From a virus (lineage: Duplodnaviria; Heunggongvirae; Uroviricota; Caudoviricetes): DNA of 17,392 nucleotides. Numbering within the stretch: the stretch's first letter is position 1; each line of letters begins with the position of its first letter. Position numbers and translations under genes: made by a program. Of the stretch, positions 289 through 11,746 are shown one piece after another. The stretch is taken from the IMG/VR virus record IMGVR_UViG_2778261152_000002, positions 1 to 17,392 of that record. One strand, 5' to 3'. Under the pieces are notes generated by a model. The model was not told the DNA's origin and ran no database searches. It saw nothing but the letters and a program-made list of their open reading frames with translations.

Positions 289-1341
289 TTATTTCCCCAC
301 CAGCTCGTTTATCTCTTTCACTGTCTGGTTAAACCGCTCTGACTCAAGCTCAACACCTAAGGCCCGACGCCCCAGCGCCATTGCTGCTTTTATTGTGGAA
401 CCGGATCCCATAAAAAAATCAGCAACCAGATCACCAGGTCGACTACTGGCATTGATTATTTGCCGGAGCATATCCGCAGGTTTCTCACACGGATGTTTAC
501 CCGGGTAGAACTGAACGGGTTTATGCATCCAGACATCGGTATAAGGCACGGAGACTGATACGGAGAAATAGCGCCGGAGAGATTTAAACTCATCCAGCAA
601 TTCAGAATATTTGCGATTCAGTGAATCATAAGATGCCACCAGCTGGTGGTGTGGTTGTTCCAGTTGTTGTTCCTGAAACTTCTCTGCCGCTATACGGGAA
701 AACAGTGCCTGTAACTTCCGATAGTCAGCCTCATTCGGCAACTGCCACTGACTGGCACCAAACCAGTGGGAAACCATATTTTTCTTACCTGTGGCTTCGG
801 CAATTTGTTTTGCCGTTATACCCAGTTCGGCACGAGCATCCCTGAAATACGATATCAGCGGTGCCATTATGTGCTGTTTGAGTTCCCTTTCTTTTGCCGC
901 ATAGCAGTCACTTTTGCCGCGATATGGCCCCTGGTAATGTTCAGCAAACAGAACGCGCTCTGTGGCAGGAAAATATGCGCGCAGACTTTCTTTATTACAC
1001 CCATTCCAACGTCCGGACGGCTTCGCCCAGATGATATGGTTAAGCACGTTGAAACGTTCACGCATCATGATCTCAATATCAGATGCCAGGCGATGCCCAC
1101 AGAACAGGTAAAGGCTTCCGGCAGGCTTTAACACCCGCCAGAACTGGGCCAGACAGTGGTCCAGCCACTTAAGGTAATCTTCGTCCCCTTTCCACTGATT
1201 GTCCCAGCCGTTGGGTTTCACCTTGAAGTACGGCGGATCGGTAACAATCAGGTCAATGGAATCATCAGGCAGGGACTGAATAAAATGCAGGCAATCAGCG
1301 TTGATTAAATCAACACTGTTTATTTTTACAGTATTTTTCAT
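289..1341 (-). CDS. DNA methyltransferase, beta-class (DPPY before FxGSG), probably N6-adenine
   Basis: 350 aa. Motif IV DPPY near the N-terminus (IVTDPPYF), SAM-binding FFMGSGS near the C-terminus. ATG at 1339-1341, TAA at 289-291. Confidence 0.85.
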   Translation of the reverse strand: MKNTVKINSVDLINADCLHFIQSLPDDSIDLIVTDPPYFKVKPNGWDNQWKGDEDYLKWLDHCLAQFWRVLKPAGSLYLFCGHRLASDIEIMMRERFNVLNHIIWAKPSGRWNGCNKESLRAYFPATERVLFAEHYQGPYRGKSDCYAAKERELKQHIMAPLISYFRDARAELGITAKQIAEATGKKNMVSHWFGASQWQLPNEADYRKLQALFSRIAAEKFQEQQLEQPHHQLVASYDSLNRKYSELLDEFKSLRRYFSVSVSVPYTDVWMHKPVQFYPGKHPCEKPADMLRQIINASSRPGDLVADFFMGSGSTIKAAMALGRRALGVELESERFNQTVKEINELVGK

Positions 1342-1955: not shown

Positions 1956-2984
1956 ATGGCTACACTGGACGCATTCAGTAGAGTAATAACTCATCATACT
2001 ATTACGATCGATACACAATACCGTACACAGAAAATTGATGATAGCATCAGATCGAACTGTGTTTGCCCGGTACCAACAATGCGTGAACTTGCTTCTAAAA
2101 TAGTACGTTGTAAAGCAATGATGCACAGTTATGAAAAAGGAGACTTAGTTTTAACTTTGCAAGATGTAATCTTCTTATCAAACAGAGCCGATAAAAAACC
2201 CAGCCATCTTGGTCTTTTAATTAATGCTGTAGATAAAAATGGAAGCACTACTGTGTTAAAAAACATTAATACAGATGTTCGTACCGAAATATCACCAAAA
2301 CATGAGGAAGGTGAAGGTTACGAAGTTTCTTCTCATATGATTATTTCTCTAGACGGAAATATGCGAACCTATGACATGAGTTTTATGCCAATACCAGGAG
2401 TTTCCACAGCAAAAATAAATGGTTTCCTGAATAAAGTTCTCTTTAACGTAGCCAAAGATAATGAAGATATCTTTTCATGTAACACTTTAACAAATGAAGT
2501 ATCAAGTTTAACAAAGAAAAAAATAAAAGTATTATACAAGCCAGTCTTTGATATATCTGGAAAGTTAGATGAAGATTTGTTCAATAAAATAAATAAAGAA
2601 GGACTTTCTGATGTCGTTTTGGTAAAGAATGAATACAGAACTATTAATGCGCCAGATGTTAACGCGGCTATTATTCCTAAAGAAAGTACTTTACGCTTAG
2701 TACCAAACCATGGCCCCAACAATGTCCTTGGATGGATAAAATCTGTCTCAAACTTCTTTAAAGAAGATAAAAATGGAGGTTATGACTTAATAAAAATAAA
2801 ATTCAAAGAGCCAGAGACAGGATTCACAAGACAAGTTGACCTTCAAACTTCAAATGTAAGGCTCGATGGGCTGGAAAAAACATTTATCAAAAAGAGTGTA
2901 ATAAATGGTTTTTCTTCGCGCTTAAAGGATTCTTATGATAGTATTAACATGGAGTTTGTGAATAAGATTATCGAGGTCATGTGA
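1956..2984 (+). CDS. Hypothetical soluble protein, first gene of AT-rich two-gene cassette
   Basis: 342-aa ORF, ATG 1956, TGA 2982-2984. K/N/D/I-rich, no TM segments, no nucleotide-binding or catalytic motif I can recognise. Markedly lower G+C than flanking phage genes. Opposite strand to the surrounding late operon. Confidence 0.7.
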   Translation: MATLDAFSRVITHHTITIDTQYRTQKIDDSIRSNCVCPVPTMRELASKIVRCKAMMHSYEKGDLVLTLQDVIFLSNRADKKPSHLGLLINAVDKNGSTTVLKNINTDVRTEISPKHEEGEGYEVSSHMIISLDGNMRTYDMSFMPIPGVSTAKINGFLNKVLFNVAKDNEDIFSCNTLTNEVSSLTKKKIKVLYKPVFDISGKLDEDLFNKINKEGLSDVVLVKNEYRTINAPDVNAAIIPKESTLRLVPNHGPNNVLGWIKSVSNFFKEDKNGGYDLIKIKFKEPETGFTRQVDLQTSNVRLDGLEKTFIKKSVINGFSSRLKDSYDSINMEFVNKIIEVM

Positions 2985-2991
2985 GGCTAAT

Positions 2992-3567
2992 ATGATTAGT
3001 ATATTTTCACATTTATTTAGACCGTTTGGTTACCTTTTCATTAAGGGAATTAGTGGTAAGTGCGCATACGATTTTTATGCACCTGCCGGGCTTGCTGTGA
3101 TTTCTTTTTTTTACTTTTATTTATTTAAAATACCCACATCAGACCTACTAAAAGATGGCGGCTTTATTAAGTCTATATCTGGATTTGTATCAAATCTGCC
3201 AGGTTTTTATATAGCAGCTCTTGCAGCAATAGCCACTTTCAACAGAGAACAAATTGACTACCCTCTGATAGGAACTAATGGCACGCCTTTTATTAAAATT
3301 ACACGAACAAAAGAAAATGGTAGAATTGTTGACACTCAAGAGAAACTTACCAGAAGATTATTTCTGTGCATGTTATTTTCATTTTTAACTGCCCTCAGCA
3401 TATGCATAGTGATTTTCAACGCTTTTATCACACCACTAATAAACATACTGAATAATGATATAGCAAACTGGTGCTATATCATTATCTTTTTATTCCTTAC
3501 ATGGCAAATGCTTGTTTCAACATTTTTTGGACTATACTATCTTGGTGATAGGATTCACATTAATTAA
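2992..3567 (+). CDS. Hypothetical integral membrane protein (about 4 TM helices), second gene of cassette
   Basis: 191 aa. ATG 2992 is 7 nt after the upstream stop, with SD GAGG overlapping that stop (translational coupling). Four hydrophobic stretches (about residues 22-45, 62-85, 125-150, 160-185) separated by a charged loop. Confidence 0.7.
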   Translation: MISIFSHLFRPFGYLFIKGISGKCAYDFYAPAGLAVISFFYFYLFKIPTSDLLKDGGFIKSISGFVSNLPGFYIAALAAIATFNREQIDYPLIGTNGTPFIKITRTKENGRIVDTQEKLTRRLFLCMLFSFLTALSICIVIFNAFITPLINILNNDIANWCYIIIFLFLTWQMLVSTFFGLYYLGDRIHIN

Positions 3568-3922
3568 CTACCATAATGGGGTTTATAGTTATTATTACAC
3601 CGCTGATAAACCCCATGGCAGTCTGCAATTCCTTCCTAATTGTGCCATCTGAACATCTTCTCTTCTTGGCAATAGTGCGTAATGAGATACCAATAACAAA
3701 GTGAGCTATGATCAGCTCATATTCCTCTGGTTTATACTTTCGCAACCGAGCCACACAACCGTCTATCATGATGCCTTCATCATCATCACACTGGAGACGT
3801 GACTTTTTACCGTGTGGTAAAAGTCCCTTGAAACCAGCCGCTATCGGCTGCCAGTCCACACCACTATTTTCTGCTGCAGCCCATGCTCCCCAGCGGTCCA
3901 ATACTTCATACATATCACGCAT
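3560..3922 (-). CDS. Late-gene antitermination protein Q (small Q family, QuuD-like)
   Basis: Protein MRDMYEVLDRWGAWAAA...IAAGFKGL...SRLQCDDDEG...CSDG matches the about 125-aa Q-like antiterminator pattern as recalled. The track start at 3937 is TTG; ATG at 3920-3922 with SD GGAGA is preferred. Confidence 0.7.
   Translation of the reverse strand: MRDMYEVLDRWGAWAAAENSGVDWQPIAAGFKGLLPHGKKSRLQCDDDEGIMIDGCVARLRKYKPEEYELIIAHFVIGISLRTIAKKRRCSDGTIRKELQTAMGFISGVIITINPIMVVN
3576..3616. repeat. Perfect 11-bp inverted repeat ATGGGGTTTAT / ATAAACCCCAT with 19-bp spacer
   Basis: Read directly: 3576-3586 and 3606-3616 are exact reverse complements. Sits at the 3' junction of the cassette, inside the C-terminal codons of Q. 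Confidence 0.6.
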
Positions 3923-3939
3923 CAACTTTCTCCACAAAA

Positions 3940-8908: not shown

Positions 8909-9513
8909 GCGTTAGTTTCTCCACAGTCACGACACGCCACGGCGCCCGGAGCTGCACACTCGCGGGCGTCATTACTTTCTGAAATGCAAAAGATTTTGTA
9001 GACCAGTGCTGCATGCTCCTGCAGCTTCGAAATTGAGAGATACAGCTCGTCGTTAATTGCTGTCTTCTCATGCGGTTCCACCACACCGTCTTCGATTGCC
9101 GAACGAATCTGTCTGGAATAACTGCCAATTTGTTCAATGACTTCCAGCAGGCGCTGGTTAATATCGGCGTTGTCCACATCCTCGACGTCAGGAAGAGACA
9201 CAAAGACGCCATTTGCAGACTGCGCCACAGCGTCAGCAATGAAGTGAGTTCCACCAGCACGTTGCAAAATCATTGCCCATCCCAGCGGGAAAATCTGATC
9301 GCCATCGGCACGAAGGCGGTTAAATAATGCGTTTTCTGTTACATCCAGCCAGTCAGCTGCTTCAGCGTAACCACCCGGCAACGCTGCGATAGTTTTTCTG
9401 ACAGCTTTCACGTACCACTCAGGCTGTTTTTCTACTTTCCAGTGATGCTTACCCACGGTTAGCCTCATCGTTCTGTGGTTTCTGTTAATCGATTTATCCA
9501 TTAGATTTTTCAT
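8905..9513 (-). CDS. cII-position regulatory protein (CII/CP76- or YdaT-like), start uncertain
   Basis: ORF is open from a GTG at 9570; candidate ATG starts at 9513, 9501 and 9468, none with a strong SD. C-terminus has a C-x7-C-x7-C-x2-C cluster. Function inferred mainly from position downstream of cro. Confidence 0.5.
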
Positions 9514-9694
9514 AAAGCTCAGGTTTAAATGGCAACCGTCCGCAAGTTCTATATGCAGCTTCTGCTGCACGTCCTTTTGGAATTAACTGGCCCGGACGGT
9601 TTCGCCACTGATAAACGGCTTCAGTTGTTATGCCGAAAAAAGCAGCAACTTTCTCAATACTGCCGAAGTAGCTTTCGATATCGTCAGTTGTCAT
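9494..9694 (-). CDS. cro: Cro-like HTH repressor
   Basis: 66 aa, divergent from cI. HTH-like segment AAFFGITTEAVYQWRN. ATG 9692-9694 with SD GGAGG. Confidence 0.7.
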   Translation of the reverse strand: MTTDDIESYFGSIEKVAAFFGITTEAVYQWRNRPGQLIPKGRAAEAAYRTCGRLPFKPELYEKSNG

Positions 9695-9791
9695 ACGCCC
9701 TCCAAGCTAAGTTTTATTAGATGCTAATTACAAATCTATCTTTGGTCAATAAAAACTAAGATTACTTAGCAATTAAAGAAATGGTGCTCCT
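9695..9791. promoter_or_regulatory. Divergent cro/cI operator-promoter region
   Basis: 97-bp AT-rich interval between divergent cro and cI. Near-palindrome CTAAG-ATTA-CTTAG at 9756-9769 and CTAAG at 9707-9711 with partial inverted partners. Confidence 0.5.
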
Positions 9792-10418
9792 ATGGAAACG
9801 GTTGGTCAGCGTATAAAAGCTCTGAGAAGAGTTACCGGAACGTCCCAGAAAGAATTGGGTAAATTTTGTGGAGTAAGCGACGTTGCTGTGGGGTACTGGG
9901 AGAAAGACATCAATACCCCTGGTGGGGAAGCACTTTCGAAATTAGCGAAGTTCTTCAATACGTCAATAGATTACATTCTTTATGGTGCTGAGTTTGAAGG
10001 CAAACTCGTCACAAACATGCGCAGAGTTCCTGTAATATCGTGGGTTCAGGCTGGGCAGTTTACTGAGTGCAGGGCAGCAGAAGTGTTTAGTGAAGTGGAC
10101 AAGTGGGTAGATACATCATTAAAGATTGGTGATAACTCATTTGCATTAGAGGTTAAAGGTGACTCCATGACTAACCCTAATGGCCTCCCAACAATACCAG
10201 AAGGCGCAACAGTGATTGTAGATCCAGATGCAGAACCTCGTCATGGAAAAATAGTCATCGCTCGACTTGATGGAACAAACGAAGCTACAGTAAAAAAATT
10301 AGTCATCGATGGCCCTCAAAAGTTTTTAGTGCCATTAAATCCTCGGTATCCCAACATCCCTATCAATGGTAATTGCCTTATCATTGGTGTAGTCAAAGGA
10401 GTTCAATACGAACTCTAA
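9792..10418 (+). CDS. cI: CI-type prophage repressor (XRE HTH plus S24 LexA-like peptidase)
   Basis: 208 aa. N-terminal HTH (QKELGKFCGVSDVAVGYWEKD), Ala-Gly cleavage site in VQAGQF, catalytic Ser in GDSM and Lys in ATVKKL. Confidence 0.9.
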   Translation: METVGQRIKALRRVTGTSQKELGKFCGVSDVAVGYWEKDINTPGGEALSKLAKFFNTSIDYILYGAEFEGKLVTNMRRVPVISWVQAGQFTECRAAEVFSEVDKWVDTSLKIGDNSFALEVKGDSMTNPNGLPTIPEGATVIVDPDAEPRHGKIVIARLDGTNEATVKKLVIDGPQKFLVPLNPRYPNIPINGNCLIIGVVKGVQYEL

Positions 10419-10580
10419 GACCTCTCTTCTCTAACTAAGGCACCGAACTAAGAAAAGTTTGGTGTTTTCTCTTGCCACAATAACTAAGTTAAGTTAGATT
10501 TTATATCAAAGATAACGAACAGGCAGGACGCCCACGAAGTAGCCGCCTGGGGCATATGAAGTCCAGGATGATTCGTTAGC

Positions 10581-10606
10581 AACAAAAAAGCGCCCTACAG
10601 GACGCT
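10581..10606 (-). terminator. Candidate intrinsic terminator (minus-strand transcripts)
   Basis: Minus-strand RNA: AGCGUCC-UGUA-GGGCGCU (7-bp stem including one G.U) followed by UUUUUUGUU. The plus-strand version has a C-A mismatch and a poor U tract. Confidence 0.4.
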
Positions 10607-10665
10607 TAGCTCTTTAACAATCTGGTCCCCATCAACAAGTAACTGATAACTTGAGGAGATGTGAA

Positions 10666-10872
10666 ATGCACAAAACAGAACCCAAAATCGTCGCGCCTGG
10701 CTACACAGATGAGGAAATTTATGAGTGGATGACAAAGAAGCTGGCAGCTATAAACCAGCTTCGTGAAGTGCTGTCTTATCGACAGGAAACAATAGACTCC
10801 TTAAAAAAACTGGATCAGGAAATCACGGTTTTATCACAGGATGTTACTTTAGATATTGTGCAGACAAATTAG
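10666..10872 (+). CDS. Hypothetical small coiled-coil protein (immunity-region insert)
   Basis: The track ORF starts at a TTG at 10651; ATG at 10666 with strong SD GAGGAG is preferred, giving 68 aa. Heptad-like charged/hydrophobic pattern. Its 3' end overlaps the convergent 144-aa gene by 29 nt. Confidence 0.45.
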   Translation: MHKTEPKIVAPGYTDEEIYEWMTKKLAAINQLREVLSYRQETIDSLKKLDQEITVLSQDVTLDIVQTN

Positions 10873-11278
10873 GATCCCATTCATTTTCGTCAAAATCATC
10901 AAAGTGATGAATTTGTGATCTCCAGTCTCGATAATCTAAAAATTTCTGGGCGGTTACGCTTATTTTATCAAGTGTGAGTTCATCCTGAATTGAAAGAAGA
11001 AGTTCATCAAATTTCATCTCATTAATCTGTTTTGGCATCCAGTGATGCTTCATCAGAATAAGGTGAACCAGAGCCTTTTTCCCATTCAACTGATTATAGG
11101 GAGTGCCGAATTTCTTCCGGTGCTCATGTAAGACAAGGTCCAAAAGAGTAAGTAATGTTGCCCTTGATTCAACTTTGCTTATTTCGACTGATGACACTAC
11201 CCCACTGATTTCAATGCCCCGATACTTTCCAACATTTTCACAGTGGGATTTGTACAGCGTATAGATATTACCGGACAT
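10844..11278 (-). CDS. Hypothetical 144-aa protein in the immunity region (rex/sieB position)
   Basis: ATG 11276-11278 with SD AAAGGAAAAG. AT-rich gene. No TM segments. Contains R-x6-H (RDWRSQIH), too degenerate to call a HEPN domain. Confidence 0.55.
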   Translation of the reverse strand: MSGNIYTLYKSHCENVGKYRGIEISGVVSSVEISKVESRATLLTLLDLVLHEHRKKFGTPYNQLNGKKALVHLILMKHHWMPKQINEMKFDELLLSIQDELTLDKISVTAQKFLDYRDWRSQIHHFDDFDENEWDPNLSAQYLK

Positions 11279-11430
11279 TTCTTTTCCTTTTGCGTTGTTG
11301 GGGATAACCAGATTAACCGAATCCTTGTTGTTGGGGAATAACTAGGTCCACCTCGCCTGATGTGGCTAAAAGCAGGCACATAACAGCTAAGTATTTTCAA
11401 CCAGAGAGAATCCTTAGCGTTGTGGTGAAT
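11279..11430. promoter_or_regulatory. Candidate OL/PL-type control region
   Basis: Position between the immunity insert and the early-left genes. Direct repeats GTTGTTGGGGATAAC (11294-11308) and GTTGTTGGGGAATAAC (11327-11342). CTAAG (11387-11391) and CTTAG (11413-11417) form an inverted pair. No confident -35/-10 identified. Confidence 0.3.
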
Positions 11431-11564
11431 GCGGCTCAGCGCACGCGGGTTAAGGTTGAGGCTGACAGTCGACCTTCTGTGGATACCCACCCGCCTGGTG
11501 TGCAACCTTCGCCAGGCACCGGGAGGCACCCGGCACCACAACTTTATGCTGTGTGTAGTCTTGG

Positions 11565-11609
11565 CGGTACCAGCTTGTACCCTTGCTTCCGGCTGGTACC
11601 GTCCTTTTT
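11565..11609 (+). terminator. Candidate intrinsic terminator in the early-left leader
   Basis: Plus-strand hairpin CGGTACCAGC (11565-11574) / GCTGGTACCG (11592-11601), 10-bp stem with 17-nt loop, then TCC and TTTTT (11605-11609). Confidence 0.35.
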
Positions 11610-11746
11610 ACAAAACAGAGAAGAGCATCACCGGACGACGGGCTCATAACCCAATCCATCCGGGCGGCAGTCACCGCAGGTGTTCTTCTCTGTTTTGTGG
11701 AGAAACTAACCGACCTTGCAGGGTCGATATGATGAGGAGCAGCAAA

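Follow-up and report, generated by a model that had tools for sequence, protein, structure and literature searches.

The DNA analysed here, a stretch of 17,392 nucleotides that we refer to as the window, derives from a lambdoid prophage of the SfV/SfIV/CPS-53 type, and the thrW-proA site of E. coli strain SCEC020001 holds the same DNA. The repressor region comprises cro (9494-9694, minus strand) and cI (9792-10418, plus strand), the latter with HTH_3 and Peptidase_S24 domains (Pfam). From 11747 onwards, yfdP, yfdQ (DUF2303) and yfdR on the plus strand lead to xis/int, and this gene order indicates that early-left transcription proceeds on the plus strand, away from cI. Two convergent genes lie between cI and yfdP. 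The small gene (10666-10872, plus strand, ATG to TAG) encodes a 68-residue protein of the YdfC/phrog_1744 family, and the large gene (10844-11278, minus strand) encodes a 144-residue protein of the ECs1072 family (NF033230, phrog_5286). Their coding sequences overlap by 29 nt at the 3′ ends (10844-10872), as stated in the original prediction, which had been made from the letters of the window. The strong Shine–Dalgarno sequence ascribed to the small gene is GAGGAG (10653-10658), 7 nt before the ATG, and the good one ascribed to the large gene is AAGGA, about 8 nt before the ATG. Both reading frames are genuine genes, as judged by matches to phrog_1744, phrog_5286 and NF033230 and by the annotation of both in RefSeq. 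The pair had also been described as AT-rich relative to cI and cro; the direction of this difference holds, but its size is only marginal (the GC content of the small gene is 40.6% and that of the large gene 37.9%, compared with 43.1% in cI, 43.3% in cro and 46.6% over the window).

The original prediction had placed the two genes within the immunity region, at the position of rex and sieB. This placement did not survive inspection of the DNA downstream of cI. Directly 3′ of the cI stop codon is an intrinsic terminator (10437-10472, plus strand), in which a 13-bp hairpin (10437-10468; -15.1 kcal/mol, z = -5.1) is followed by UUUUCUCU; in SfV a terminator is likewise found directly 3′ of its cI. 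Next comes a pL-like promoter, TTGCCA-N17-TAGATT (10472-10500, plus strand), which is overlapped in its spacer and -10 element by an operator-like palindrome, ACTAAGttaaGTTAGA (10483-10498). Weaker operator-like sites are present at 10434-10462, and the best copy of the motif, the related palindrome ACTAAGattaCTTAG (9755-9770), is located in the cI-cro gap. Five of the nine matches to this motif in the window cluster in the cI-cro gap and the pL-like region. The heteroimmune phage SfV has at the same place TTGACA-N17/18-TAATGT, overlapped by its own TGTACC repeats/operators, which recur in the SfV cI-cro operator region. Homology of the window to the heteroimmune SfIV, SfV and PhiR29_1 starts at 10514, and the match to the homoimmune mEp460_4F5 extends through 10575. 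From these comparisons, the immunity module (oR, cI, terminator and oL/pL) ends near 10510, and the pair belongs to the early-left transcript. Since the cI terminator and the pL/oL-like site intervene, we assign the pair to a slot for exchangeable cassettes (10578-11347) that opens this transcript, and a placement equivalent to that of rexAB is also contradicted by the fact that immunity-specific DNA is already over at 10514.

The left flank of the slot is a backbone leader (10514-10577, plus strand) common to heteroimmune relatives, and the homology with SfV and mEp460_4F5 stops at 10575-10577; the conserved right flank extends from 11348 onward. Within the slot, SfV carries orf33 and mEp460_4F5 a gene for a 122-residue HTH protein, both on the plus strand, and PhiR29_1 carries a gene for a zinc-ribbon protein on the minus strand. 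PhiR29_1 has the minus-strand terminator (to 10625) and the sequence from 11294 rightwards in common with the window, although the gene between them differs, which suggests that the slot brings a resident antisense promoter region and terminator. The slot is thus a cargo hotspot. None of these three cargo genes is a known defence gene, and therefore the slot gives no guilt by association. A structured RNA resembling STnc100 (11389-11612, plus strand; 43.4 bits, E 9.4e-8, just below the gathering score of 47) lies in the right backbone flank upstream of yfdP. It ends in a strong hairpin and U-run (z = -5.8) and contains a weak DicF-like match (11550-11604); at gathering thresholds Rfam gave zero matches in the window. 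We considered this RNA as a part of the module and rejected it, as SfV has the RNA without the pair and the RNA is absent beside the pair in ST64B and Serratia. Elsewhere in the same prophage, a Q-proximal slot (1956-3567) carries the PADLOC candidate system PDC-M53A/B on the strand opposite to Q (3563-3937), in the same antisense orientation as the large gene, and this provides circumstantial support for a defence reading of the large gene.

To assess conservation of the pair, we used a sample of about 160 fetched loci encoding ECs1072-family genes, which form 36 clusters at 80% identity. A convergent YdfC-like reading frame overlapping the 3′ end of the large gene is present at 147 of 159 loci, and the overlap, 29 nt in the window, spans 29-194 nt in relatives, 95 nt being the commonest length. 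At 80% identity clustering, a detectable YdfC-like partner accompanies the large gene in 30 of the 36 clusters. Two further clusters, L161 and L162, give weak partner matches, and in the L092 group (six clusters) the convergent reading frame is not detectably YdfC-like. The locus in prophage Sp4 of strain Sakai, which lies outside the 36 clusters, has the same divergent type of partner as L161. Pairing is far beyond chance, and both the proposal that the two genes form a functional unit and the proposal that antisense interplay is built into them are supported. As to annotation, records frequently lack one of the two genes: the large gene is missing from those of ST64B and KPP5665-2 and the small gene from that of Sakai Sp4.

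The pair occupies three operon settings. In the first (type A, 15 clusters with at least three repressor types), it lies between cI and yfdP/yfdR, as in the window. In the second (type B, 17 clusters including those of Salmonella ST64B, Klebsiella KPP5665-2 and Serratia), it lies between Q and the lysis genes. The third (type C), between cro/cII and the replication gene O, is represented by L161 and by ECs1072 of Sakai, the gene that gave the family its name and which is ECs_5703 of prophage Sp4. Irrespective of setting, in 33 of 33 classifiable clusters the flanking lytic genes run against the large gene and in the direction of the small gene; within 3.5 kb, 99 kb of flanking coding sequence is on the strand opposite to the large gene and 27 kb on the same strand. 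The convergent, overlapping arrangement is kept down to approximately 25-35% protein identity in all three settings. Taken across genomes, the distribution of the two genes is asymmetric. A survey of 5,426 complete E. coli genomes found the large gene in 416-422 and the small allele of the window in 412, and about 2,480 further genomes match ydfC only; of the records in the phage collection, six carry both genes and 19 only YdfC. The large gene thus hardly ever lacks its small partner, and YdfC-like genes are common on their own. Sequence comparison therefore portrays the pair as a conserved, uncharacterized and apparently mobile two-gene module of enterobacterial lambdoid prophages.

The large gene has the hallmarks of a lysogen-expressed moron, namely reverse orientation, a promoter-like element and a terminator of its own. 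The minus-strand terminator, previously placed at 10581-10606, is located at 10578-10607, with the stem at 10588-10607 (-11.5 kcal/mol, followed by UUUUUUG) and the T-run at 10578-10587; it is weak in the plus direction. The same terminator is present in PhiR29_1, in conjunction with a different minus-strand cargo, and in cluster L136. A second hairpin for minus-strand transcripts (10737-10762; -15.6 kcal/mol) lies inside the small gene and has a weak U-run with the tail CUUUGUCA. This hairpin is the positional equivalent of a terminator embedded in pairs with long overlaps (type B), in which a hairpin and T-run are found 18-54 nt past the stop codon of the large gene, within the small gene, and the opposite strand there codes for KEKAALEERL, a conserved peptide of the small protein. 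Since the hairpin at 10737-10762 may stop part of the 144-residue gene's transcript, the earlier claim that this transcript is antisense to the whole of the small gene is true for read-through RNA and does not extend to RNA stopped at the hairpin. Upstream of the large gene, the 5′ UTR (11279-11341, minus strand) contains, besides the AAGGA sequence, a direct repeat (TTATYCCCCAACAAC, two copies); the stretch with the repeat is a 32-nt insert compared with most relatives. It is preceded by a promoter-like element with an internal inverted repeat, CCAC..GTGG (11342-11382, minus strand; consensus TTCACC-N17-TGgTATCTT). In the window allele the -10 sequence of this element is degenerate (GGTGGACCTAG), and a scan for sigma-70 promoters found none on the minus strand upstream of the large gene in the window. 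The element is of the extended -10 type and recurs, approximately 60 nt upstream of the ATG, in numerous type A clusters as well as at the Serratia locus (type B); other type B loci share a different element, TGnTATTGT. Because the promoter-like element is also found in SfV, mEp460_4F5 and PhiR29_1, all of which lack the large gene, it may be an antisense promoter of the backbone that is exploited by cargo genes.

The small protein matches phrog_1744 over its entire length (6e-35, residues 1-68 of 68) and is 40.9% identical to annotated YdfC over 66 residues (E 2e-9). Its N-terminal codons share about 80% nucleotide identity with E. coli ydfC, and RefSeq ydfC lies beneath the match. Members of the family have an N-terminal motif, EPxI..G.T.EE...W[ML], in which W21 is invariant, followed by a helix of coiled-coil composition; a profile search of the family against PDB sequences gave only compositional matches to coiled coils. 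YdfC is one of three promoter-proximal genes in the DicA-repressed dicBF operon of the Qin prophage, where dicF comes next, and is an uncharacterized protein (PMC5069750). In both Qin and the window, the gene is promoter-proximal in the early-left operon and precedes a DicF/STnc100-like RNA, but Qin-type loci have no ECs1072-family gene opposite ydfC. As the small gene runs with the lytic operon in every context, it is more likely a lytic-cycle product. The original prediction that both genes are expressed in the lysogen is thus not upheld for the small gene, which lies downstream of the cI terminator and of the pL-like promoter and is homologous to a gene of the repressed dicBF early operon (PMC5069750).

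The large protein matches NF033230 ('ECs1072 family phage-associated protein') with 157.8 bits against a cut-off of 70, over profile positions 2-142 of 142, and phrog_5286 at 1.5e-90. A profile search of 1.84 billion representatives returned only 76 relatives, all of about 145-155 residues and with a single domain. Across an alignment of 43 sequences, H72 and W134 are fully conserved, and L50, R54, L64, G66, A69 and W80 are nearly so. The AlphaFold2 model based on the same alignment is of high confidence and all-alpha (pLDDT 93.5, pTM 0.88) and has no match to a known fold, nor did a profile search of the family against PDB sequences or Pfam scans of all 43 members identify a solved structure or a characterized domain. 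The protein is predicted to be a soluble, mildly acidic, helical protein of 17 kDa with no hydrophobic segment. In uninduced Sakai cultures, ECs1072 gave a measurable, growth-phase-dependent microarray signal (PMC2241611), which lends circumstantial support to the proposal of a lysogen-expressed protein set out below. Between the window and SfIV, the large gene differs by 3 nt and 0 amino acids and the small gene by 5 nt and 2 amino acids, which are too few differences to measure selection.

The original prediction had proposed profile and structure searches on both proteins, and these supplied family names (NF033230/phrog_5286 and YdfC/phrog_1744) but no functional match. Pfam, PADLOC and NCBIfam scans of both proteins together with 43 and 16 family members returned only these two uncharacterized family names, and at E <= 1 PADLOC-DB v2 gave 0 families for either protein. 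Resemblance to RexA/B or SieB (PADLOC, Pfam) and to toxin-antitoxin families (Pfam, PADLOC) was found for neither. The two proteins share an acidic, hydrophilic composition (GRAVY -0.47 and -0.50) and neither has a membrane segment, the maximum 19-residue hydropathy being 0.84 and 0.29. In literature searches we found no functional study of either family. GiPD474 of Gifsy-1, which was also considered, is an unrelated ATPase.

On the basis of gene arrangement and by analogy with a known system described below, we tentatively propose that the large gene encodes an accessory or defence protein expressed in the lysogen and that the small gene encodes its cognate inhibitor, made only during lytic transcription, a proposal that we regard as plausible yet somewhat short of probable. 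We infer the timing of expression from the promoter-like element and terminator of the large gene, from its orientation against operons that are silent in lysogens and from a partner that is read only when these operons fire. The large gene would be transcribed from its own promoter against the lytic operon and, because this operon is repressed, its product would be made in the lysogen. The small gene, being in the window the first gene after pL and on the strand of the lytic operon, would be made only upon prophage induction or by an infecting phage that carries it. Upon induction, vigorous transcription of the operon through the module would silence the large gene by polymerase collision; operon RNA, fully complementary to the mRNA of the large gene, would add to the silencing, and the small protein supplied at the same time would bind and neutralize the large protein. 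Such a circuit would suit a function that benefits the lysogen and is incompatible with the lytic growth of the phage itself, most likely an anti-phage or exclusion factor, and the orphan YdfC-type genes of other phages might then act as antidotes. It is possible, although more doubtful, that the ECs1072-family protein is an anti-phage immunity protein of the Enterobacteriaceae with a new fold, that its antidotes form a family that includes YdfC, that the overlap acts as a switch coupling immunity to lysogeny and that the orphan ydfC genes of Qin-like and other lambdoid phages serve as counter-defence.

Several observations weigh against the proposal of a lysogen-expressed protein with a lytic inhibitor. 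For neither protein was a counterpart found among known defence families, enzymes or solved folds, and a helical protein of 17 kDa has no obvious effector activity. The promoter-like element has a degenerate -10 sequence in the window allele, where no minus-strand sigma-70 promoter was found, and it also occurs in relatives without the large gene. The small gene does not keep to one expression class (it is the first gene after pL, part of the pR operon or downstream of Q), unlike what a tightly timed antidote would predict, and the convergent reading frame of six clusters (the L092 group) is not detectably YdfC-like.

The architecture of the pair has a known counterpart in Tha/Ith of Staphylococcus aureus prophages, in which a gene active in lysogeny is overlapped by a small gene on the opposite strand whose product inhibits Tha (PMC11087260). 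Tha is a HEPN RNase, and in phage 80alpha the defence gene belongs to the cI operon and ith is transcribed constitutively from a promoter of its own (PMC11087260). By analogy, we consider Tha/Ith the closest tested precedent, the likeness consisting of a small gene that overlaps a larger one in antisense and is conserved across phages (here with 29-194 nt at 147 of 159 loci). There is no relation in sequence or fold, and the 144-residue protein has no HEPN or other recognizable domain. Moreover, the arrangement of promoters differs: in the window the large gene would have the separate promoter and the small gene would ride the lytic operon. A looser counterpart is sieB/esc of P22 and lambda, a lysogen-expressed exclusion gene in the pL operon with self-escape and antisense RNA control. 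SieB is an inner-membrane protein whose gene shares its strand with pL, and translation from an internal start within sieB yields Esc; Ranade and Poteete (1993) reportedly described an antisense RNA, sas, at P22 sieB. The pair in the window differs in consisting of two separate convergent genes with the large gene on the strand opposite to pL, and in that both proteins are predicted to be soluble and show no homology to SieB. The reverse-oriented lysogenic-conversion morons such as lambda bor also have their own promoter and terminator, lie against the lytic operon and are expressed from the prophage, but each consists of one gene, with no conserved partner overlapping it on the strand of the operon.

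The main rival to our proposal reverses the roles of the two genes: the YdfC-like protein would be the lytic effector, with a host-takeover or toxic early function, and the ECs1072-family protein would guard the lysogen against leaky expression, being turned off by convergent transcription on induction. The architecture fits this reading equally well. YdfC-like genes are frequent without the large gene, which suggests a role of their own, and they reside in early operons together with the toxic dicB, dicF and ydfD (PMC5069750). Conversely, the large gene is almost never alone, as expected if its sole job is to counter the small gene. The asymmetric distribution, which suits the reversed roles as well as it does our proposal, therefore does not separate the two. 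We nonetheless regard the reversal as unlikely, given that no toxicity of YdfC is reported in the literature searched, that most YdfC phages do without the guard, and that a timing which shifts between immediate-early, delayed-early and after Q, as that of the small gene does, would be odd for a host-takeover effector.

Three other explanations are each contradicted by features of the pair that were tested. In the original prediction both genes were expressed in the lysogen from the immunity region, in the manner of rexAB with cI, as a joint exclusion or abortive-infection pair. The pair does lie 250-860 nt from cI, the small gene points in the same direction as cI and might be expressed at a low level by transcription that passes the cI terminator, and the exclusion genes rexAB of lambda and sieB of P22 are located near this position, close to cI. 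An accessory function in lysogens is likewise common to rexAB and to what we propose here. The rexAB genes lie between cI and oL and are co-transcribed with cI from pRM, whereas in the window a stable hairpin with a U-run, followed by a pL/oL-like site, stands between cI and the pair, and the immunity-specific DNA ends at 10514, before the pair begins. Furthermore, the pair is found beside heteroimmune repressors, in most clusters it is remote from cI and sits between Q and the lysis genes, and RexB is a polytopic membrane protein, unlike the proteins of the window, which lack membrane segments and any similarity to Rex (PADLOC) or SieB. P22 SieB, whose gene is near this position, spares P22 itself (PMC10883804). 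We consider expression of the two genes together with cI to be improbable.

A toxin-antitoxin type of addiction or stabilization module, in which the antisense overlap would provide RNA control similar to that of type I systems, would account for two small genes with strict linkage and complementary 3′ ends and for a partner family that also occurs as orphans. However, the genes are convergent and not co-transcribed, and since the presumed antidote is in a repressed operon, the toxin would be unopposed in the lysogen. Type II systems are co-transcribed bicistronic operons with known folds, in contrast to this convergent pair, for which Pfam and PADLOC gave no match to known families; type I toxins are short, hydrophobic peptides kept in check by an antisense RNA, in contrast to the hydrophilic, acidic proteins encoded here, and the large protein has no known nuclease or kinase fold. 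There is little probability, in our judgement, that the pair is such a module. Finally, an accidental overlap of two functionally uncoupled morons, which could be suggested by the mere 29 nt shared in the window allele and by the unrelated cargo genes that the slot takes, is strongly disfavoured and would be a most improbable coincidence, since the same two families remain convergent and overlapping at approximately 25-35% protein identity in three operon settings and in the long-type pairs the terminator of the large gene falls within codons that are conserved in its partner.

The architecture of the pair has its known counterpart in Tha/Ith and, more loosely, in sieB/esc; what is new comprises the proteins and the fold, the rule of orientation that applies in all three operon settings, and the connection with YdfC. 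About 8% of complete E. coli genomes carry the window allele, and relatives occur in Salmonella ST64B, Klebsiella, Serratia and Sp4 of O157 Sakai. If correct, the proposal of a lysogen-expressed protein with a lytic inhibitor would extend to the lambdoid phages of Gram-negative bacteria, with unrelated proteins, the principle exemplified by Tha/Ith, namely that an overlapping antisense inhibitor ties a function to lysogeny. It would also add a new protein fold to the accessory and defence functions of prophages, and would provide the first testable function for YdfC, the product of a K-12 gene that is present in roughly half of E. coli genomes.

The sequence TGGGAYCC lies within the overlap between the large (ECs1072-family) and small (YdfC-like) genes in 14 of 29 clusters, including that of ST64B, where it falls at approximately 3247-3256. 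On the large-gene strand it encodes a W-D-P motif, the W of which is invariant. Where the site takes its full palindromic form, TGGGATCCCA, the opposite strand specifies (W/Q)DP in the tail of the small protein as well. In the window, the stop codon of the small gene immediately precedes the TGGGAYCC site (...TAGGATCCCA).

Members of the pair are missing from the annotation of several relatives. The ECs1072-family gene is unannotated in both ST64B (2845-3279) and the Klebsiella phage KPP5665-2 (2845-3291), in which only Sb50 and GP45, respectively, have been called on the other strand, and the small partner is absent from the annotation of the Sakai Sp4 locus (34117-34677).

The first AT-rich insert of the window (1956-3567, plus strand; GC approximately 30-35%) is located between Q (3563-3937, minus strand) and a DNA methylase gene (292-1341, minus strand). 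It has two genes, both facing against Q, which match PDC-M53A (1.3e-31) and PDC-M53B (1.7e-54), a defence system listed as a candidate in PADLOC. The same Q-proximal slot is occupied by ECs1072/YdfC-like pairs (type B) in other phages.

In PhiR29_1, the slot that holds the pair in the window carries a different cargo gene (3133 to ~3640, minus strand), whose product combines a coiled coil with a zinc ribbon (CPKC...CLHC); the upstream region and terminator are the same as in the window. The likely promoter sits downstream of this gene's annotated start, which is probably incorrect.

To the right of the slot, yfdP is preceded by an STnc100-like leader (11389-11612, plus strand; Rfam match slightly below threshold at 43.4 bits, E 9.4e-8), which is GC-rich and heavily structured, with a hairpin followed by a U-run at its end. 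This RNA could be a promoter-proximal leader or a terminator RNA. It contains a weak DicF-like match (11550-11604), and there is another long hairpin at ~11605-11700. RefSeq annotates the region as a frameshifted hypothetical protein, and in the SfIV annotation it is fused to yfdP. STnc100 (108 bits) is found between the large gene and holin in KPP5665-2, and adjoins DicF in a Qin-like phage. C4 antisense RNA and isrK gave no match in the window at gathering thresholds; both match SfV (82 and 64 bits; 813-1001, minus strand) within orf37, annotated 'immunity region'.

The 5' UTR of the large gene (11279-11341, minus strand) contains two copies of TTATYCCCCAACAAC with A-A-C/A-A-G triplet runs, an insert restricted to the window, L136, SfIV and PhiR29_1 alleles. 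Adjacent to it (11342-11382, minus strand) is a promoter-like element, TTTTCACCACATCAGGCkcGGTGGTATCTT, that is highly conserved and includes an inverted repeat. Copies occur in SfV (3588), PhiR29_1 (3719), the compared loci L004 (4278) and L008 (3940), and twice in L092 (2945 and 3852), whose convergent ORF is not detectably YdfC-like. In many SfV-like phages the element is directed against pL, independently of cargo, and it could represent an operator-controlled antisense promoter belonging to the phage backbone.
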